Below, piece after piece: positions 28,943-61,278 of a stretch of 64,000 nucleotides of DNA (position 1 is the first letter of the stretch; each line of letters begins with the position of its first letter). The notes under the pieces are model-generated. The model ran no database searches and was not told the origin of the DNA. It saw nothing but the letters and a program-made list of their open reading frames with translations. The DNA is from a virus. The DNA lies in IMG/VR virus record IMGVR_UViG_3300029953_000001; one strand, written 5' to 3'. Made by a program: the position numbers and the translations under genes.

Positions 28943-30196
28943 ATGAGTCTTCTTGCTACAATTAGCAGTGTAGAAAAGGGGCGTCGTGAGGTAAACCTCA
29001 ACGATGCCAATCGTTGCACGTGGGAGTGCCTCGTACCTGTCGAGCAGATTAACAAGCTCGATGTCACTCAGATTCCGTGGGCTAACATTCGTGTTGGCTA
29101 TAACAAGGACGGATACAAGTCCCCCTTCGCGAAGGAAATTCGGGATTCCCTGTACCTGCGTGATGGGAATTTTGACTCTCAGCACAAGGGCATCCGCATC
29201 ATCGCCGATAGTGCCAACCTCAACGACGGTAAGCTCACCATCAACTTCGGTACTCAGGCAAAGGTGGGTAACTTCAACACCAACACCCGTGGTCTCGGAG
29301 ATGGGGGAACCACGGTTCGTCTTATCAGCGAAGCGTTACGCGATGCGGCGGAGCCTTTCATTCAGGGCGAGTCGAAGCAGTATGTCCGGCTTTTCGTGTA
29401 CTGTGGCAACTACTCCAAGGAAGATACCTCCTCGATGGTCGAGGCGTGGAACACCGGCATGAACGCCAAGTCCTCGGACATGCTGAACTACCAGAAGAGG
29501 TTCGACGGTCTCAAGAAGATGCTGGACGGTAAGCCTTTTGGATTGACCCTCCCTAAGTCCGGTGTTCGCAAGTTCCCCTCAGTTAGCTACTACACGGGTG
29601 AGAACGCCGACTATGACATCACCGAAATCGTGCAGTTTGGCTGTCTGTTCGCCATGGACTCCGCCCGGACTGCATATACCGGCGTGGGGGGTTGCCTCTC
29701 GTTTTTTGAGAAGGAGGCAGCGAAGTTCAAGAGGGTACAGCCGCTCCTTTTCGACATCATTTACCTGTACGAGTCCATCATCAGCGAACTGCCTGAGTTG
29801 TATAACGGGACGGGTAAGAACGGGGGTGGGTTGGGTCGTTTCTTGGCCACGCGCCCTGTGGCTGCTGGTTCCAAGAGCCCCACTAACCTCCCCTTCGTTG
29901 GACGGGATGTTCCGTTCACTCCTCACAAGATGTGGGCTTTCCCGATGTTGGCGGCGTTCCGGGGTGCTATTGACTCGGATGCGGAGGACATCGGATGGCT
30001 CGTCAACCCCTTGGAACTCTTCCGTGCGGAGGGTGCCAATGTGTACAAGGAGATTTTGAAGACCTCAGATGTCTACGCTTCGGACTCCTTCAACATTGGA
30101 CGTGACAGTAATTTGTACGGAAACTTGCAGAACATGGTCGGTCGTGCTGCGGAGAAGGCCTACCGTAAGGGACTCTACCCTATCTCCGGTCGGTAA
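28943..30196 (+). CDS. ParB/DndB-like (DGQHR-like motif) protein, 417 aa
   Basis: RBS AAGAGGTAG. N-terminal region contains LYLRDGNFDSQHKGIRIIAD, resembling the DGQHR signature of DndB/DpdB-type ParB-fold proteins (G->S, R->K). Family assignment is a judgement from the motif only. Confidence 0.55.
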   Translation: MSLLATISSVEKGRREVNLNDANRCTWECLVPVEQINKLDVTQIPWANIRVGYNKDGYKSPFAKEIRDSLYLRDGNFDSQHKGIRIIADSANLNDGKLTINFGTQAKVGNFNTNTRGLGDGGTTVRLISEALRDAAEPFIQGESKQYVRLFVYCGNYSKEDTSSMVEAWNTGMNAKSSDMLNYQKRFDGLKKMLDGKPFGLTLPKSGVRKFPSVSYYTGENADYDITEIVQFGCLFAMDSARTAYTGVGGCLSFFEKEAAKFKRVQPLLFDIIYLYESIISELPELYNGTGKNGGGLGRFLATRPVAAGSKSPTNLPFVGRDVPFTPHKMWAFPMLAAFRGAIDSDAEDIGWLVNPLELFRAEGANVYKEILKTSDVYASDSFNIGRDSNLYGNLQNMVGRAAEKAYRKGLYPISGR

Positions 30197-30197
30197 C

Positions 30198-31022
30198 TCA
30201 TCGTTTGCAAATGTGAATCGCGGGGAGGTTATCTCCCCGCGATTCACATTGAATTGGAACCCCGGCTAACTTCAGTTCGGTGATGGAGTCGGCTACTCTC
30301 TTTTTCCTCCACGCAGCACGTGACTTAGCAAGCAGCTTCTCTTCTGGTGTGATGCTTCGCCACGAGGACTTGTACTCACACACCTGAGGTTCGGTGTAGG
30401 GTTTTATCCACTTGCAGAGCACAATCTTCTTGGAGACATCTTCACGATTGAAGGGGTTGCCGCGTAGTCCTCCCGTCAGCCCCTTCCCTACGTGGTTCTT
30501 TGTGTTTCCCGATGTTTCCCCTACTCGCTCCCAGTTGTCCGCAATGTAGAGCCCCCCTACACGCTGCGTAGTGGCGTCTAGCTCTGCGTACTCCACGAAG
30601 GTCTCAAACCCGTAAGGCTTCACCCCGTACAGAGCTTCCCAATCCTTGACGACAATCTTACGCCACATGGCAACAATTCTGGACGCCAGATTGGGTTCAT
30701 GTAGCTCCAGTCGGAACAGAGTGTTGTCGATGATACCGTTGATGACCTTCTCGCGGTTCTCCTTGGTTATATGGAAGAACTTGTCTCGCACGCTCGTAGC
30801 ATAGACAGCGGAGCCGCCAGAGATAGCTCCGACGTTCTGCCAGCCATCTACAGTCTCGTACCAAATGAGATAGTGAATCTGCTGTCCATGGTGCCCACGA
30901 ACATCACCCACGGCCTTCGACTTATCCGTCCGACCATCGGCGGACATCTTACGCACGTAGTGATTCTTCTCGAACACCTTGATGTCCGAACTACTACAGA
31001 ACTGAAAGAACAGTCGCTTCAC
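30198..31022 (-). CDS. hypothetical protein (274 aa), last gene of 4-gene accessory operon
   Basis: ORF overlapping upstream gene by 4 nt (ATGA coupling). No confident motif; C-terminal Cys/His cluster. Confidence 0.6.
   Translation of the reverse strand: MKRLFFQFCSSSDIKVFEKNHYVRKMSADGRTDKSKAVGDVRGHHGQQIHYLIWYETVDGWQNVGAISGGSAVYATSVRDKFFHITKENREKVINGIIDNTLFRLELHEPNLASRIVAMWRKIVVKDWEALYGVKPYGFETFVEYAELDATTQRVGGLYIADNWERVGETSGNTKNHVGKGLTGGLRGNPFNREDVSKKIVLCKWIKPYTEPQVCEYKSSWRSITPEEKLLAKSRAAWRKKRVADSITELKLAGVPIQCESRGDNLPAIHICKR
30208..30252. repeat. 20-bp perfect inverted repeat (hairpin, loop GTTAT) at the convergent junction of the 417 aa gene and the 4-gene minus operon
   Basis: CAAATGTGAATCGCGGGGAG-GTTAT-CTCCCCGCGATTCACATTTG read directly from the sequence. 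Lies in the last 18 codons of the 274 aa ORF; no U-tract on either side. Confidence 0.8.
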
Positions 31023-33351: not shown

Positions 33352-34002
33352 ATGGGTCAGTTTTATGTCTATGAATACCTGCGTTCTGATGGTACCCCTT
33401 ACTACATAGGTAAGGGTAAGGAGGCTCGTGCCTTTCATCCTTACTACAGGGCTGTAGCCACCCCCAAGGACAAGGAACGTATCCGTTTTGTAGCTACGGA
33501 ACTATCTGAACCGGATGCTCTACAAGCTGAGATGTTTCTTATCTTCATGCATGGGCGTAAGGATAAGAGAACCGGGTGCCTTCGTAATTTGACCGATGGG
33601 GGGGAGGGTACTTCGGGGCATACCCACACTGATGAGTGGAAACTAGCTGCGTCGAAGAGAATGAAGGGGCACATAAAATCCCCACTTACTTGTAGTCGAA
33701 TAAGCAGTGCTAAGAAGGGTAAACCTGTCAGCCTAGCTCAAAAACAGAGTATATCAAGAGCCCTCAAAGGGCGGCTGTTCAGTGATGATACCCGCCAACT
33801 AATTTCTGCTGCAAAACGTAATGTCCCCCTTCCTTCAATGCGAGGGTCAGGAAACCCTCGTGCCAAAGTAACCGATGTTGATGTCATTGCGATTCGCAAC
33901 GGTAGTTTGAAGGAAAGAACTGCCCGAGAAAACCTCGGACTATCCCATACCCAATTTTACCGTTTGAAAAGAGGAGAACAATGGCAATTACAATCGACGT
34001 GA
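33352..34002 (+). CDS. GIY-YIG homing endonuclease with NUMOD3 DNA-binding repeats (216 aa)
   Basis: FYVYEYLRSDGTPYYIGKGK (GIY-x-YIG). C-terminal repeats RISSAKKGKPVSLAQKQSISRALKGRLFSDDTRQLIS are NUMOD3-like. 3' end overlaps the endolysin start by 22 nt. Confidence 0.8.
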   Translation: MGQFYVYEYLRSDGTPYYIGKGKEARAFHPYYRAVATPKDKERIRFVATELSEPDALQAEMFLIFMHGRKDKRTGCLRNLTDGGEGTSGHTHTDEWKLAASKRMKGHIKSPLTCSRISSAKKGKPVSLAQKQSISRALKGRLFSDDTRQLISAAKRNVPLPSMRGSGNPRAKVTDVDVIAIRNGSLKERTARENLGLSHTQFYRLKRGEQWQLQST

Positions 34003-34475
34003 AACTGAAGACTTTTCTTTCACTTATAAGTTGGAGCGAAGGAACGAGCATCGCCCCTCTCACCAAGAACCTTGGCTACGATGTCATCGTTACCGGCATC
34101 CACGGCCCCTCTGTGTTCACCGACTACACCGACCACCCGTTCGCCCATGGTGGCTCCGTGCAGTTCCACTTGAACCCACCTGAGTTCTCAACCGCTGCTG
34201 GCCGTTATCAGGTTCTGGCTCATTACTTTGAGGCGTACAAGGCACAGCTTGGACTCCCTGATTTCTCACCAGCATCGCAGGACAGGGTTGCCATTCAGCA
34301 AATCTCTGAACGCAATTCCATCCACTTGATTGAGCAGGGCAACATCGCGGGAGCCATCACGGCGTGCTCCAACATTTGGGCATCGTTCCCCGGCAATGAC
34401 TATGGACAGGGCGGTCACTCACTTGCCGGTCTGGTCGCCAAGTACACCGCTGACCTAGCCGCTCTTGGCGGCTAG
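33981..34475 (+). CDS. R: endolysin, lambda R-like lytic transglycosylase (164 aa)
   Basis: Collinear match to remembered phage lambda R: FLSLISWSEGT / GYDVIV / FTDYTDHP / AAGRYQ / LGLPDFSP.SQD.VAIQQISER / CSNIWASFPG. Confidence 0.85.
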   Translation: MAITIDVKLKTFLSLISWSEGTSIAPLTKNLGYDVIVTGIHGPSVFTDYTDHPFAHGGSVQFHLNPPEFSTAAGRYQVLAHYFEAYKAQLGLPDFSPASQDRVAIQQISERNSIHLIEQGNIAGAITACSNIWASFPGNDYGQGGHSLAGLVAKYTADLAALGG

Positions 34476-45605: not shown

Positions 45606-47104
45606 TATGGTTGCCCCGGAATGTAGTCTCTACCCACTGTGCGTTCTACTTGGAAGGTGAAGGAGAAATCCCATCTAAAAGGATTACTGGCGTCCATAGT
45701 CCATGTCAGAGATTTGAAGTACCCCTCATAAACGAAGTTACGGAATTGCATCACCACCGAGCCTCGCGTCAAGGCATCGTTATTTCTGCCGTTCATCTGC
45801 TGAGCACTGAGACCTAAAGCTGGAGACCAAGCGTCAATACCTGTCCAGTCTCGTGTCTCACTGGTATTACCCGGATTCACCACTGTTCCACCAGATGATG
45901 ATTGGGGTGAGTATATTTTGTTCCAAAGCCAAACTGAGCCGTTCATCTTGAACAAGGAGAGGAGTTCCTGAAATGCATCTTGAGCCGCAACGCGGAAGGC
46001 TGTGCTCTGGGTGACCTTCAATCCACTGAGACGGGTTTGGAAATTTGAGTCAGAGCCCACCGTCCGGTACTCGCTTACCACCCCACCTGTAATACCCCCC
46101 TCACCGAGCACCGTGCTGTTGTCAATGGTGGCGGATGGGTTGTTGCTCAACGTGAGTCCGCTGACAACAAGACGCTTCAAGTTCTCATCCACATTGAACG
46201 TGCTGAAGTAGTCCGTGATGCCAAACTGATTCATAAACACACCGGTTGAGCATTGACCCGATATAATGTCAGCCTGACTTCCCCACATCGTTATATGAAA
46301 TGCTGTGCGAGTCTTTTGCTGATGGTAGAGATGCTTCATGGCGAGGCTATACTGCTTCATCGAGGCGTTCAACTGCAATATAATCGGTTGCCCCGTCCGC
46401 CCTTTGTCTGACAGGGTAAAGTCCTCAAGATATATTTTGAATGTGACCGGCTGCACTTCTTTGCGAAGACGGGGGTTACCCGTGATAAGACTTGTGTCCT
46501 GAAACCATGGCGTGATACCGGATAACCCTTCACCCTCCACAACATCGGGAAACAGTGCGTTATACGCATCCGTGCTAATGTCATTGTTGGTTAGAGGCTT
46601 GGCTACAACAGCAGTGCGACCCAAATCTGGGAGATTATCTGTAGGAGAGGATGTCATCCCAACTTGTTGAATTACCGTCTGAACAGCAGAATTAACCGAT
46701 TCTCTACCGGAGGCTGACGTTGCTCCCTTATATGCAAATGCGGCATTGGCGATATCCCCGTTACTAGCGGAGAGAGCCTGCTTCCACACCTTAGCCCCCG
46801 CTGTTAGATTATCCGCGATAAAAGAGGGGGAGTTAGGGTCGGCGGAGGAGGGAAGTCCCAAAGACGCAGCAGTAGTAGGTAACACCTGTGCCGGTCCCTG
46901 CGCCCTCTGCCCACTTGTACCTACTGGCGTCCCCTGTGCCCATCCACTGGATGTAGGGACACCTTCGGTAGATATGAGTGAGTAGTAAGAGTACGGATCA
47001 ACACCAACGTTAGTCGCGGTGGTGTACACCGTCGGCCAAATACCAGTGGCTTGAAAGTTTTTACTCCCGTATGCGGGTGCCTGAGGAATATTTGGTGATG
47101 CCAT
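45605..47104 (-). CDS. tail structural protein (499 aa), possible distal tail protein
   Basis: Immediately downstream of the putative tape measure gene. Confidence 0.6.
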   Translation of the reverse strand: MASPNIPQAPAYGSKNFQATGIWPTVYTTATNVGVDPYSYYSLISTEGVPTSSGWAQGTPVGTSGQRAQGPAQVLPTTAASLGLPSSADPNSPSFIADNLTAGAKVWKQALSASNGDIANAAFAYKGATSASGRESVNSAVQTVIQQVGMTSSPTDNLPDLGRTAVVAKPLTNNDISTDAYNALFPDVVEGEGLSGITPWFQDTSLITGNPRLRKEVQPVTFKIYLEDFTLSDKGRTGQPIILQLNASMKQYSLAMKHLYHQQKTRTAFHITMWGSQADIISGQCSTGVFMNQFGITDYFSTFNVDENLKRLVVSGLTLSNNPSATIDNSTVLGEGGITGGVVSEYRTVGSDSNFQTRLSGLKVTQSTAFRVAAQDAFQELLSLFKMNGSVWLWNKIYSPQSSSGGTVVNPGNTSETRDWTGIDAWSPALGLSAQQMNGRNNDALTRGSVVMQFRNFVYEGYFKSLTWTMDASNPFRWDFSFTFQVERTVGRDYIPGQP

Positions 47105-57210: not shown

Positions 57211-60200
57211 ATGTCAATTAAGGCCCTGCAATCTTACACGTTCCATTCGAAGTATGCCCGTTACAACCCTGAGCTAAAACGACGCGATACATGGTCAGAA
57301 TCAAATGATCGTGTGCTCAACATGCACCTGAGTCGCTATCCACAAATTGCCGAGGAACTGAACTGGGCATTCGAACAATCCAAAGCCAAGCGGGTACTTG
57401 GGAGCCAACGGGCTCTCCAGTATGCTGGTACACCCGTGCTCCGCAAGCACGCTCGTGTTTACAATTGCACTGTCTCCTACTGCGACCGTCTCCGCTTCTT
57501 CCAAGAATCCCTATGGTTATTGCTGTGTGGCTCTGGTGTAGGGTTCTCCGTTCAGAAGCACCACGTTGCCAAACTGCCTGACTTCCTCGAAGGCCGTCAG
57601 TTGGGCGTCCCACAGCGTGAAGTTGAGTTCTACATCCCCGATGACATCGAGGGATGGGCTGATGCTCTCGGCAACCTGCTTGCCACGTACTTCCCTCACC
57701 CGGATTACCCGGAGTGTGCGGGTGCGAACATCAAGTTCAATTACAGCCTCATCCGTCCGAAGGGCTCCAAGCTTTCGTCCGGTGTAGGTAAGGCACCCGG
57801 CCCCGAACCACTGGCTAAGTCACTGGAAGCCATCCGTGGACTCCTCGACCGCTGCTTGGCTGATGGACAGGCTCGTCTCCGTTCCATCGACGCCTACGAC
57901 GTTGTGATGCACGCCAGCGATGCCGTGCTCTCAGGTGGCGTCCGTCGCTCAGCGACCATCTGCATCTTCTCGCCGGACGATGATTTGATGGCACGTGCCA
58001 AAATTGGCGACTGGTACTACACCAACCCGCAGCGTGGCCGTTCCAACAACTCCGCGATGCTCGTGCGTAGCGCAACCAGCCGTGAAGACTTTCATGGACT
58101 AATGGGGTGGGTTAAGCAGTTTGGGGAACCGGGCTTTGTGTGGTCGGACTCCACTGAGATGATGTTTAATCCTTGTTTTCATCCTGAGGAAAGAATCTCC
58201 ACCATAAATGGGATGGAACGGCTGATTGATATGTTCCATACAGGTCAACCTAATCAGGTAGCTTATGATTCCCGTGCAGGTAAGTCCGATGAGCTTGACC
58301 TCAATCGCAAGGGGATTCAACTGTCCTCGGCATCAAAGGTCAAACTTACCCAAACTCAGGCCCCCTTGTTTCAGTTGAACACTGAGCATGGCCACACCCT
58401 CAGGGTCACCGAGAACCACGAATTTCCGACCTTACGGGGGAGGCTGAAGCTAAGCTCTCTGGTACCCGGAGATACACTCCTACTCCCCTCGGCGGAACTC
58501 CCCTTTGGTAAGGACGGCTCGTTCGCCGCAGGTTTGGTACTCGGACTTATCACCGGGGACGGCTTCGTCAGTGGTCATCAAGCCTTCGTGGACGTGTGGA
58601 AAGCTGACTTCGATGTCTTAGACACGGTAAAGGAGTACATTCACTCGCTTATCGAACAGGTTCCTAGCAACGCCAATGGTGTCCGTGAGTATACCCAGTT
58701 GGATTGGGTGAAGCAGGGGGAGGACAAACGCAGGATAGGCGGACTGCGTCTCTATCGGTTCTTGAGGGAGAACTTGAACATCGAAGACCCGGCGACGATC
58801 AAGGATAATATTCCTGAGTGTGTATGGCGTGGGTGTCGGGAGATGGTGGTGGGTTACCTACAAGGACTTATGTTTGCAGACGGTGGCTTGAATCTGAGTG
58901 ACCACAAAAAAGTACCTACTTTCTCTTGGCGACTTAACCAGAGCAATGAAGCCCTGCTGGTAGAGGTGCAGAGGTTGTTCGCGATGTTCGCGGTGGTTTC
59001 GAGGGTAACTCCGCGTAGAAAGGCGGGGCGAACCCTTCTTCCCGATGGGCGCGGTGGCTCTAAACTCTATGCTACCAAAGACAACTTCGAACTCATTTTG
59101 AATCGACCTAATAGTATTAGGGCATACGAGGTCGTAGGGTGTTTCGGTCGCAAGAAGGATATCCTTCAGTCTCTGATGGGGTACTGTGGGACAAATTGTC
59201 GTAAACCGGAACGATTCATTACCAAAGTAAAATCCATCACACCTTGTGGTGTGTCCGATGTGTACTGCCTTACTCAATACACTTCCAACACCGTCATAGC
59301 AAATGGTTTGGTTACGGGTCAGTGTGTTGAAATTGGCATGTACCCGGTCGATGTCACCACTGGTCTCAGCGGATGGGCGTTCTGCAATCTCTGCGAAATC
59401 AATGGCAAGAAGTGCAAGACCAAGGAAGACTTCGCTATCGCTGCTAGGGCTGCTGCCATCATCGGCACGGCACAGGCTGGCTACACCGACTTCGAATACC
59501 TTGGTCAGACTACCAAGAACATCGCCGACCGTGAGGCCCTTCTGGGTGTCAGCATCACCGGCATGATGGACTCGCCGGAGATTCTCTTCGACCCTAAAAT
59601 TCAGCGTGAGATGGCACAGCTTGTTGTCGCCACCAACAAGGAAATCGCGGCGAAGATTGGTATCCGTCAGGCAGCACGTTGCACTTGCGTGAAGCCAGCC
59701 GGAACCACGTCCTGCATCCTCGGCACATCGAGCGGTATTCACGCTCACCACTCCAAGCGTTACATCCGCCGCGTTCAAGCCAACATGCTGGAAGCTCCAT
59801 ACCAGTTCTTGGCTGAGAAGAACCCGCGTGCGGTGGAGAAGAGCGTGTGGTCGAAGAATGGCACCGACTCGGTGATTGCATTTTGTATCGAGACGGCTGA
59901 AGGTGCTCGTACCCGCAAGGATATGACCGCCATCAAGCTGCTTGAGCATGTACGTTTGACGCAGAACAACTGGGTGGAAGCTGGCCGCAATGCTGAGCTT
60001 TGCACACAACCCTATCTTCGTCACAACGTGTCGAACACCATCAACGTCCGCCCTGATGAATGGGACGAGGTTGAAGCCTACATCTACGAGCACCGTCAGG
60101 ATTTCGCGGGTGTGTCCTTGCTTTCTAGCACGGGTGACCTTGATTATCCTCAGGCTCCCTTCAGTGCCATTCACACCCCGGCTGAAATCGTCAAGCTGTA

Positions 60201-60633
60201 TGGCGACGGAAGCTTGATGGCTTCGGGTCTTATTGTCGATGGCCTCGCGGCGTTCGATAACAACCTATGGTTGGCTTGCGACTACGTGAACGGTGTCAAC
60301 AAGCTGGAGTGCCCGGAACCGGTGGCAGTTGTTGACGATAACGGTAATGAGATTCACCCCACGGAAATCGAGATGGCTGAACGTGAGGAAGTCTTCAAGT
60401 GTGCTGTGAAGCGTGACTGGATTCGTCGTGCTCATCAGTTCTCTGACCGCTACTTCGAGGGCGACCGTAAGCTCATGAGTTACTGCCTGAAGGAAGTTCA
60501 CAACTGGAAGTATTGGTGCGACCTTCAGCGTGAGTACGTCGATGTAGACTACAAAGACCTCATCGAAGAAGAAGACAACACCAAGATTCAGGACACGGTA
60601 GCTTGCGCTGGAGGTGTGTGTAGTTTTATGTAG
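57211..60633 (+). CDS. nrdJ: class II (adenosylcobalamin-dependent, NrdJ-like) ribonucleotide reductase, interrupted by an in-frame intein
   Basis: Extein joins to ...MMFNP|CVEIGMY (NPCxEI thiyl-radical loop) with downstream FCNL (cf. the RTPR loop TNPCGEISLANGEPCNL, recalled from memory). 757 aa extein after removing the 383 aa intein. Confidence 0.8.
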   Translation: MSIKALQSYTFHSKYARYNPELKRRDTWSESNDRVLNMHLSRYPQIAEELNWAFEQSKAKRVLGSQRALQYAGTPVLRKHARVYNCTVSYCDRLRFFQESLWLLLCGSGVGFSVQKHHVAKLPDFLEGRQLGVPQREVEFYIPDDIEGWADALGNLLATYFPHPDYPECAGANIKFNYSLIRPKGSKLSSGVGKAPGPEPLAKSLEAIRGLLDRCLADGQARLRSIDAYDVVMHASDAVLSGGVRRSATICIFSPDDDLMARAKIGDWYYTNPQRGRSNNSAMLVRSATSREDFHGLMGWVKQFGEPGFVWSDSTEMMFNPCFHPEERISTINGMERLIDMFHTGQPNQVAYDSRAGKSDELDLNRKGIQLSSASKVKLTQTQAPLFQLNTEHGHTLRVTENHEFPTLRGRLKLSSLVPGDTLLLPSAELPFGKDGSFAAGLVLGLITGDGFVSGHQAFVDVWKADFDVLDTVKEYIHSLIEQVPSNANGVREYTQLDWVKQGEDKRRIGGLRLYRFLRENLNIEDPATIKDNIPECVWRGCREMVVGYLQGLMFADGGLNLSDHKKVPTFSWRLNQSNEALLVEVQRLFAMFAVVSRVTPRRKAGRTLLPDGRGGSKLYATKDNFELILNRPNSIRAYEVVGCFGRKKDILQSLMGYCGTNCRKPERFITKVKSITPCGVSDVYCLTQYTSNTVIANGLVTGQCVEIGMYPVDVTTGLSGWAFCNLCEINGKKCKTKEDFAIAARAAAIIGTAQAGYTDFEYLGQTTKNIADREALLGVSITGMMDSPEILFDPKIQREMAQLVVATNKEIAAKIGIRQAARCTCVKPAGTTSCILGTSSGIHAHHSKRYIRRVQANMLEAPYQFLAEKNPRAVEKSVWSKNGTDSVIAFCIETAEGARTRKDMTAIKLLEHVRLTQNNWVEAGRNAELCTQPYLRHNVSNTINVRPDEWDEVEAYIYEHRQDFAGVSLLSSTGDLDYPQAPFSAIHTPAEIVKLYGDGSLMASGLIVDGLAAFDNNLWLACDYVNGVNKLECPEPVAVVDDNGNEIHPTEIEMAEREEVFKCAVKRDWIRRAHQFSDRYFEGDRKLMSYCLKEVHNWKYWCDLQREYVDVDYKDLIEEEDNTKIQDTVACAGGVCSFM
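58174..59322 (+). mobile_element. intein (383 aa) with LAGLIDADG homing endonuclease domain, inserted at the catalytic Cys of NrdJ; C-terminus ...IANGLVTGQ|C
   Basis: Block A CFHPEERISTINGM. Two LAGLIDADG motifs (AAGLVLGLITGDGFV, VVGYLQGLMFADGGL). Block G-like VIANGLVTGQ followed by Cys+1. Terminal Gly-Gln instead of His-Asn. Confidence 0.8.
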
Positions 60634-60701
60634 AGGGGGGTTCAGTGAACAACTTTGACCTACTAATTATCTGACTATTCAAAGACCCCCGTAGATTTGC
60701 T

Positions 60702-61004
60702 TTGGTGCCATTTTCTAGCCATCCCGGTGAGACAAATCCTTTCTTTGGAAAGACCCACACTGATGAGGCTAAGAAATCTATCTCCCTAAAGAACAAAGGG
60801 AGGGTGGTGACAACTATCCTTAGAAAGATTCGAGCAGAAAACGCAAACGGTAGTAATAACTCACAGTATGGTAAACGCTTTAAATTTGTTACAGACGGTA
60901 ACGTGACCAAGAAGCTCCCTATAGATGAGGTGGATGCCTTCTTGTCTAGTCATGATGAGTTCAGTCTGGGAAACCCCAAAAGGAAAGGGTTACATGGAAA
61001 CTAA
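60702..61004 (+). pseudogene. NUMOD3-only ORF: probable remnant of a homing endonuclease DNA-binding domain
   Basis: NPFFGKTHTDEAKKSIS and NSQYGKRF match NUMOD3 repeats of GIY-YIG/HNH endonuclease C-termini. No catalytic domain in any frame upstream (60634..60701). Confidence 0.45.
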
Positions 61005-61278
61005 CTTAGTTTTTTACATCACCAAGGTGGACGGCGGCGTAGTTGAGCAGCAGTTCACTATACCTGAGGATAAGGTGGAGGCTGTTATTCAGCAGCTTCT
61101 AGTTCAATATGCTCAGGTAGGAGTTATGAAGAAGGACGGTAATAAGGTCACCCTCACTCCCGCCAGTCAGATTAAACTCGTTGAGTGCGATATTCCTTCG
61201 TTGGTTATCGCTGCACCTACTGACACCGCTCGTGCGGCTCAGGCAGCGGACGGCATCAGGAAGCTTACTCTCGTCTAA
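60994..61278 (+). CDS. small hypothetical protein (94 aa; track ORF 60925..61278 trimmed to ATG with AAAGGAAAGGG RBS)
   Basis: METNLVFYITKVDGG...; followed by the intrinsic terminator at 61299. Confidence 0.5.
   Translation: METNLVFYITKVDGGVVEQQFTIPEDKVEAVIQQLLVQYAQVGVMKKDGNKVTLTPASQIKLVECDIPSLVIAAPTDTARAAQAADGIRKLTLV

Follow-up and report, generated by a model that had tools for sequence, protein, structure and literature searches.

The 64,000-nucleotide (nt) stretch of viral DNA analysed here (IMG/VR record IMGVR_UViG_3300029953_000001; hereafter, the window) carries a ribonucleotide reductase (RNR) gene, nrdJ, that is interrupted by an intein of 383 amino acids (aa) directly before the cysteine proposed to carry the thiyl radical. 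We consider it highly probable (about 0.85) that this element functions as a class 1 intein and harbours a LAGLIDADG homing endonuclease, that it belongs to the intein family of the RNR thiyl-cysteine site, and that its host is the NrdJm enzyme of an uncultivated large tailed phage. The intein is new, yet it is a member of a large and already known family that occupies both class I and class II RNRs. Its importance is small, in that the element is of an ordinary selfish kind and inteins have long been recorded both in this gene and at this site. For annotation, the 1140-aa open reading frame (ORF) should be divided into a 757-aa NrdJm and a 383-aa intein, and treated neither as a pseudogene nor as a fusion.

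Position of the intein in nrdJ

How precisely can the insertion be delimited? The translated reading frame runs ...STEMMFNP before the intein, CFHPEERIST...VIANGLVTGQ within it (the ends of its sequence are CFHPEERISTINGMERL...DVYCLTQYTSNTVIANGLVTGQ) and CVEIGMYPVD... after it, in agreement with the C-terminal junction read in an initial annotation of this DNA. A search with the conceptually spliced protein, which is 757 aa long once the 383-aa insert is taken out, as that annotation had stated, returned thousands of relatives. The closest orthologues cover the spliced protein from end to end with 91% (P0153), 88% (P0154) and 80–83% (P0155–P0157) identity, and are 749–763 aa in length. In a MAFFT alignment, seven intein-less orthologues read ...FNP↓CVEIGMYPVD, where the arrow marks the junction, and the gap opposite the intein is precisely 383 residues. 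P0153 is encoded on L002, a 405-kb metagenomic contig that is syntenic with the window across a helicase-like gene, two small genes, nrdJ and the downstream genes. When the window was compared with this contig by blastn, the match extended to position 58175 and began again at 59323, revealing a clean insertion of 1149 nt; the 2-nt overlap at the junction arises because there are two cysteine codons of the form TG(T/C). The seven orthologues and the syntenic DNA thus define an in-frame insert with precise boundaries relative to collinear homologues, as is characteristic of class 1 inteins, and the placement in the initial annotation, between the proline and the thiyl-radical cysteine of the NPCxEI loop, proved exact to the base. 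The identical 1140-aa protein is found on 22 contigs, and three of these that were checked (JGI sample 3300029955 and runs SRR11847918 and SRR9021112) are identical at the nucleotide level throughout the gene and for 1.4 kb on either side. Because the same gene was recovered across samples, the Gly-Gln ending of the intein is not a sequencing or assembly error; different boundaries or a canonical His-Asn ending, which the initial annotation had envisaged on resequencing, were not seen. A megablast search of the gene against GenBank phages gave no match.

The flanks of the insert match the class II RNR insertion domain (RNR-II_ins_dom, PF21995) and the RNR barrel in Pfam, and among the RNRs in the PDB their sole match is 1L1L, the monomeric ribonucleoside-triphosphate reductase (RTPR) of L. 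leichmannii (4e-22). The C-terminus of the protein, ACAGGVCSFM, contains a C-terminal cysteine pair. Judged from its sequence, the host enzyme is a monomeric class II RNR of the L. leichmannii type, NrdJm. In comparison with the intein-less gene of L002, the N-extein has 82% nt identity up to position 58175 and a ratio of nonsynonymous to synonymous substitution rates (dN/dS) of 0.12, and the C-extein has 87% nt identity from position 59323 and a dN/dS of 0.07; the exteins are therefore under strong purifying selection (dN/dS 0.07–0.12). An antisense ORF of 438 aa (58858–60174, minus strand) overlaps the 3′ portion of the intein as well as a large part of the C-extein; strong conservation of the sense frame (dN/dS 0.07) probably accounts for it.

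Is the residue that follows the intein the thiyl-radical cysteine? The pattern N-x-C-x-E ... C-N-L forms the active site of class I and class II RNRs, and in L. leichmannii includes N406, C408, E410 and C419. In the phage protein (spliced numbering), N320, P321, C322 and E324, together with C342-N343-L344, are invariant in 108 intein-less orthologues. MAFFT with the --addfragments option placed the L. leichmannii sequence NPC408GE410...PC419NL on NPC322VE324...FC342NL, with a phage loop that is nine residues longer. The HMMER pairwise alignment to 1L1L disagrees, setting Cys408 opposite Cys342, and a profile hidden Markov model of NrdJm orthologues left the active-site loop of L. leichmannii unaligned. 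We accepted the MAFFT placement because the HMMER alignment loses the essential Glu410, and rejected the pairing of Cys408 with Cys342 as a loop misalignment. The homologous inteins in other RNRs agree with the MAFFT placement, in that they stand before the cysteine of canonical NPCGEQPLPPYG.CNL motifs. On this alignment, we propose that Cys+1 (C322) is the thiyl-radical cysteine of the NPCVEI loop, and that the intein lies directly N-terminal to the cysteine of N-x-C-x-E (NP↓CVE), the position that characterizes the RNR thiyl-cysteine site.

Splicing domain and the Gly-Gln terminus

The splicing domain consists of two HINT lobes that flank the endonuclease domain (Table 1). Cys1, T10 and His82 are invariant and Thr79 is at least 90% conserved in two family alignments (A1 and A2), and Cys1, Thr79 and His82 supply the class 1 nucleophile and the block B Thr-x-x-His motif. 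In block G, Thr381 corresponds to G:5, Gly382 to G:6 and Gln383 to G:7. Class 1 inteins have a cyclising C-terminal residue followed by Cys, Ser or Thr at +1, and here these are Gln383, glutamine being a recognised variant (PMC4031507), and Cys+1. The penultimate histidine at G:6, which is common yet not obligatory in class 1, is replaced by Gly382. An AlphaFold2 model of the intein, run on a 25-sequence family alignment from which the SPbeta row was left out, has a mean predicted local distance difference test score (pLDDT) of 94.2 and a predicted template modelling score of 0.92, and consists of beta-rich lobes at residues 1–112 and 343–383 around a helix/sheet domain at residues 113–342. 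The top PDB matches to this model in Foldseek were the intein-endonucleases TliVMA, PI-PfuI, PhoVMA, PI-SceI and PI-TkoII. These were followed by free LAGLIDADG enzymes, which match the middle domain, and by mini-inteins (Npu/Ssp DnaB, Mtu RecA, gp41-1 and NrdJ-1), which match the HINT lobes over about 105–118 alignment columns (root-mean-square deviation mostly 2–3 Å, range 2.1–6.1 Å) and support a HINT fold. In a viral structure library, the best matches were the intein-containing RNRs of Brochothrix phage A9 (template modelling (TM) score 0.89), Marseillevirus, phiTE and Pandoravirus.

How would such an intein leave its host protein? The 1140-aa precursor would be inactive, in that the intein splits the N-x-C-x-E active-site loop. 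Cys1 would undergo an N-S acyl shift, helped by Thr79 and His82, and Cys+1, the future radical cysteine, would attack to form a branched thioester. Gln383 would then cyclise to a glutarimide instead of the usual succinimide, so that the intein would be freed without a penultimate histidine (Gly382), and an S-N shift would restore NPCVEI in an active 757-aa reductase. The excised protein, or its LAGLIDADG (DOD) domain, would be expected to cut intein-less nrdJ across the ...AATCC(T/A)↓TG(T/C)GTTGAAAT... junction during co-infection, and the intein would be copied in.

The initial annotation had regarded the Gly-Gln ending as unusual and of a type associated with slow or altered C-terminal cleavage, a view that did not withstand comparison with the family. 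We searched 1.84 billion cluster representatives exhaustively with HMMER and obtained 1245 clusters at E ≤ 1e-3, including 111 at E ≤ 1e-30; a word-indexed protein search gave 4 matches with the intein and 17 with a 17-sequence profile, too few for statistics. We counted the endings in 50%-identity cluster representatives among the best 150 matches, which is no census of the whole family. A position could be assigned to 139 of these, and all 139 stand at N[PL]↓C-x-E of an RNR. The last residue (G:7) is Asn in 75, Gln in 60 (about 43%) and Arg in 4, and the penultimate residue (G:6) is most commonly Gly (62), ahead of His (37), Ser (13), Ala (13) and others (14). As a two-residue ending, GQ is the commonest (36/139), with HN at 33 and GN at 26. 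Block F position 4 (F:4) is Asp in 76 and Cys in 62, and its pairings with the last residue are C/Q 36, D/Q 24, C/N 22 and D/N 52. Among the 12 nearest neighbours of the window intein, six end in GQ, three in GN, and one each in SQ, RQ and LQ. On a neighbour-joining tree for which the terminus had been masked, a minimum of 26 changes in the last residue is required, as against about 45 with shuffled labels; Gln and Asn have therefore been swapped many times. Within the sequences compared, the Gly-Gln ending is normal for the RNR thiyl-cysteine-site family, and appears neither anomalous nor defective. 'Non-canonical' termini at this RNR site should accordingly not be marked as defects.

The published record agrees with this reading of the terminus. 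The site before the thiyl-radical cysteine is the most frequent RNR intein site (PMC2677866), and inteins ending in Gln, Asp or Glu splice by the standard pathway, in which that residue cyclises (PMC4031507, the review by Mills, Johnson and Perler). Slowness with Gln has been reported for the Pab and Mma Pol II inteins (PMC4031507), whereas in the RNR intein of Chilo iridescent virus (CIV), which has been named 'glutamine-type' (PMC549080), the native Gln splices more efficiently than Asn (PMC4031507, citing Amitai et al. 2004). Some inteins that lack His at G:6 are nonetheless functional, and across inteins in general F:4 is most commonly Asp and then Cys (PMC4031507).

Four of the cluster representatives, all from outside the window, end in Arg: P0105 (...VAR↓CGEVP), P0122 (...VRR↓CGEQF), P0144 (...VRR↓CGEIP) and P0147 (...ARR↓CFEIS). 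In all four, Cys1, the block B His and Cys at F:4 are present, as are both LAGLIDADG Asp-Gly motifs, and the RNR is intact on both sides. To our knowledge, Arg is unable to cyclise in the manner of Asn or Gln, and a full-text literature search on inteins with a C-terminal arginine returned nothing relevant. These members hint at more than one non-Asn way of releasing the C-terminus in the family. They are the most unusual thing seen in this study, and it is they, rather than the window intein, that should be of interest to protein-splicing specialists.

Relatives, mobility and alternative interpretations

Phage RNR inteins, including those of SPbeta, P1201, Brochothrix A9 and others, have been reviewed (PMC3653736), and our tblastn search against GenBank phages gave full-length matches to the bnrdE intein of SPbeta and to its relatives. 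The bnrdE intein of SPbeta (SPBc2; Bsu-SPbeta RIR1) is homologous to the window intein over the whole 383 aa (residues 1–382 aligned, 28% identity, E 6e-32), which places the latter in the SPbeta bnrdE-type family. Both have a HINT domain with a two-motif LAGLIDADG domain, a phage host, Thr-Gly at G:5/G:6 and a site directly before the catalytic cysteine (FSNL↓CVTGETLL...SLIFNGIVTGN↓CSEV in SPbeta); however, the host protein of the SPbeta intein is a class Ib NrdE instead of NrdJm, its last residue is Asn and its F:4 residue is Asp instead of Cys. The CIV RIR1 intein is likewise located in a viral RNR catalytic subunit, ends in Gln and has been shown to splice (PMC4031507, PMC549080), but its host is a class I RNR of a eukaryotic virus. 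Closer to the window intein are allelic inteins in NrdJm proteins on other contigs (P0159, P0166, P0254 and P0006), for which we found no published description. They occupy the same NP↓C site, share the ending ...ANG[ILC]V[TV]GQ↓C, and have diverged more than their exteins, with 49–67% intein identity and 61–77% extein identity (67% versus 77% in P0159 and 54% versus 73% in P0166). Other NrdJm proteins carry different inteins: P0270 and P0272 have canonical ...YVHN↓CVE endings, apparently at the NP↓C site as judged from the C-terminal junction only, and P0158, P0189 and P0261 have ...GLVTGN or ...GVVTGN inteins at a second site, VYN↓C[TC]VS[YF], in the region of the N-terminal active-site cysteine. 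From these two sites and the differing inteins, it follows that the NrdJm family has been invaded at two cysteines, by at least two intein lineages. Among inteins of known structure, PI-PfuI (Pfu RIR1-1), PI-SceI and the Tli/Pho VMA inteins have the same two-domain HINT and DOD fold (Foldseek E 1e-11 to 7e-16, TM score about 0.53–0.61), but they are only 10–13% identical, possess additional regions for DNA recognition and are inserted at other sites or in other hosts. Their termini are the canonical His-Asn. The NrdJ-1 split intein (metagenomic; Dassa et al. 2009) resembles the window intein in its NrdJ host, in the active-site loop in which it is inserted and in the match of the HINT lobes to 8ubs; in contrast, it lies one residue further C-terminal, after the cysteine (PMC2677866), occurs naturally in split form and lacks an embedded LAGLIDADG domain.

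Both LAGLIDADG motifs and an intact-looking endonuclease had been reported in the initial annotation, and both are borne out. The two motifs end in Asp-Gly, with Asp129 and Asp236 as the acidic catalytic residues of the two helices, and D129/G130, D236/G237, K210, P214 and Q266 are invariant or nearly so in the family. The secondary-structure order of the model (pLDDT 94), Pfam, and the Foldseek matches to I-DmoI, I-Tsp061I, I-OnuI and I-AniI all indicate the pseudo-dimeric alpha-beta-beta-alpha-beta-beta-alpha fold. The dN/dS of the intein could not be computed, since synonymous sites are saturated against both allelic inteins, and we give instead the proportions of nonsynonymous (pN) and synonymous (pS) differences. 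Relative to the P0159 intein (DNA in L004), the best-conserved part is the HINT C-terminal lobe (83% aa identity; pN 0.11). The HINT N-terminal lobe has a pN of 0.25, and the endonuclease domain has a pN of 0.24, a pS of 0.93 and a pN/pS of about 0.26, the same as the N-terminal lobe. With pN values of 0.24–0.25 against a saturated pS of about 0.9, both the splicing and the endonuclease parts show purifying selection, which has therefore acted on the endonuclease for most of the divergence from P0159. The residues and the model together suggest that the endonuclease is intact.

A candidate target for this enzyme is the empty site of L002 (TCGGACTCCACCGAGATGATGTTCAACCCA↓TGCGTTGAAATCGGCATGTACCCGGTTGAT, 60 bp), which matches the reconstituted site of the window at 53 of 60 nt, all differences being at third codon positions. 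The G+C content of the intein (50.8%) is close to that of the window (51.8%), and in codon usage it deviates no more than the exteins do; there is therefore no sign of a very recent arrival. Some close relatives have the intein and others do not, a distribution that fits either a recent gain or repeated loss.

Might the intein splice and yet be immobile? In this alternative, which we consider possible although clearly the lesser prospect, the endonuclease is inactive and the intein is a fixed passenger, kept only because nrdJ would not survive its imprecise removal. In the course of the homing cycle, the endonucleases of many inteins decay once fixation has been reached. All 22 contigs with the exact protein carry the intein, without polymorphism in this phage population, and the nearest allelic intein is less similar to the window intein than its extein is to the window extein. 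Against immobility stand the retention of both catalytic aspartates and of K210, P214 and Q266, a pN/pS in the DOD domain equal to that of the HINT N-terminal lobe, a domain of full length that is confidently folded in the model, and the empty sites of close relatives, which match as described above. We therefore prefer a functional intein with a working endonuclease, while recognising that several points weigh against that interpretation. Splicing, the cyclisation of Gln383 to a glutarimide and endonuclease activity are predicted on the basis of the family to which the intein belongs and of what has been published on its other members. The slow action of Gln in Pol II inteins (PMC4031507) may leave the rate of the window intein uncertain, and the putative kinship with the CIV intein was drawn from statements in the literature. 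The Pfam Intein_splicing match (4.6e-8) scores 33.5 bits, just below the gathering cut-off of 35.8 bits. The pN/pS value is a time average and no proof of present-day endonuclease activity. Finally, the closest relatives (80–91% extein identity) are without the intein, whereas more distant ones (61–77%) have it.

We also considered that the ending might be regulatory. Cys1, Cys365 (at F:4) and Cys+1, combined with a slow Gln and no penultimate His, could form a conditional, slow or redox-gated switch that holds the RNR inactive, for example by a disulfide, until the cell is reducing. We think this improbable, and slightly more so its stronger form, in which Gly-Gln together with Cys at F:4 would mark a mechanistically distinct, redox-gated subclass of RNR inteins with a disulfide trap among Cys+1, Cys1 and Cys365 and release through the glutarimide only under reducing conditions. 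If such a subclass existed, the deoxyribonucleoside triphosphate supply of the phage would be turned on post-translationally. The notion draws on the occurrence of Cys at F:4 in 62 of the 139 members, with enrichment among those that end in Gln (C/Q 36 versus C/N 22), on the identity of the +1 residue with the redox-active catalytic cysteine, and on Pol II inteins, in which slow Gln steps and an internal disulfide switch are known (PMC4031507 and its reference 79). However, the association of Cys with Gln is confounded by phylogeny, the nearest relatives having both traits; Asp at F:4 with GQ is also common (16 clusters); Cys is merely the second commonest residue at F:4 and the CIV RNR intein is efficient with Gln (PMC4031507); and no sequence feature demonstrates a disulfide.

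It is very unlikely that the intein is dead, leaving nrdJ a pseudogene or an unspliced fusion with a Gly-Gln terminus unable to support C-terminal cleavage. The canonical His and Asn are indeed both missing; nevertheless, the 3.4-kb frame is intact, the exteins are under strong purifying selection, every other catalytic residue is conserved, GQ is kept in 36 independent 50%-identity clusters with intact RNR genes, and splicing has been demonstrated for an RNR intein that ends in Gln (PMC4031507; PMC549080). Scarcely credible is a class 3-like route, in which Cys365 at F:4, and not Cys1, would take up the N-extein first. The class 3 'WCT' signature, reportedly set out by Tori et al. in 2010, is said to be Trp at B:12, Cys at F:4 and Thr at G:5, and of these the window intein has Cys365 at F:4 and Thr381 at G:5. 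In class 3 inteins, Cys at F:4 is confirmed and the Cys1/Ser1 nucleophile is absent (PMC4031507). We rejected an assignment to class 3, given that Cys1 is present and invariant in the family and that B:12 is Phe84, not Trp; moreover, Asp at F:4 is common among family members.

Phage context and other homing endonucleases

The features of nrdJ, its intein and the other homing-endonuclease genes are collected in Table 1.

Table 1. Coordinates of nrdJ, the intein and further homing-endonuclease features in the window
Feature	Position	Strand	Remarks
nrdJ ORF with intein	57211-60633	+	3423 nt, 1140 aa
nrdJ N-extein, 321 aa, ending ...STEMMFNP	57211-58173	+	1L1L match, Pfam RNR-II_ins_dom
Intein, 383 aa, Cys1...Thr381-Gly382-Gln383	58174-59322	+	1149 nt in frame; residues 322-704 of ORF
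HINT N-terminal lobe, residues 1-112	58174-58509	+	Block A Cys1; block B Thr79, His82
LAGLIDADG (DOD) homing-endonuclease domain, residues ~113-342	58510-59199	+	Pfam LAGLIDADG_3 1e-10
LAGLIDADG motif 1, LVLGLITGDG, residues 121-130, Asp129	58534-58563	+	
LAGLIDADG motif 2, YLQGLMFADG, residues 228-237, Asp236	58855-58884	+	
HINT C-terminal lobe, residues 343-383	59200-59322	+	Block F DVYCLTQYTSNTVIANG, Cys365 at F:4; block G NGLVTGQ
nrdJ C-extein, 436 aa + stop	59323-60633	+	First codon 59323-59325 = Cys+1, then VEIGMY
NUMOD3-only ORF, 100 aa, just 3′ of nrdJ, separate from intein	60702-61004	+	Pfam NUMOD3 5.1e-8
Free-standing GIY-YIG homing endonuclease, 216 aa, intact-looking	33352-33999	+	phrog_314 9e-12

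The initial annotation had described three other homing-endonuclease features and a genome heavily parasitised by selfish elements. Two such features were found, and a search of roughly 40 ORFs with Pfam and PHROGs revealed no third. The GIY-YIG gene has a FYVYEY...PYYIGKG motif and NUMOD3-like repeats, and its stop codon overlaps the start of an endolysin gene (33981–34475). The ORF beyond nrdJ has no nuclease domain and only weak matches to PHROG homing-endonuclease families, and it lies within a segment (60620–61069) that is about 320 nt longer than the matching stretch of L002; it resembles what would be left of a free-standing homing endonuclease reduced to its DNA-binding part. One intact GIY-YIG gene and one NUMOD3-only remnant besides the intein lend only modest support to the idea of a heavily parasitised genome.

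Other genes in the window encode Baseplate_J, a tail-tube initiator, an SLT lysin, an endolysin, and DnaB-like and AAA proteins. The window appears to derive from an uncultivated jumbo tailed phage, with a syntenic relative on the 405-kb contig L002. The tail lysin (45608–47104) has 37% identity to that of Tunturi_5, a 308-kb phage of Tunturiibacter (Acidobacteria) and the nearest cultured relative. Two further ORFs resemble defence genes: that at 28943–30193 (plus strand) has a weak match to the abortive-infection family AIPR (9e-4, below the cut-off), and that at 30201–31022 (minus strand) matches Druantia DruA above the cut-off (1.3e-10).

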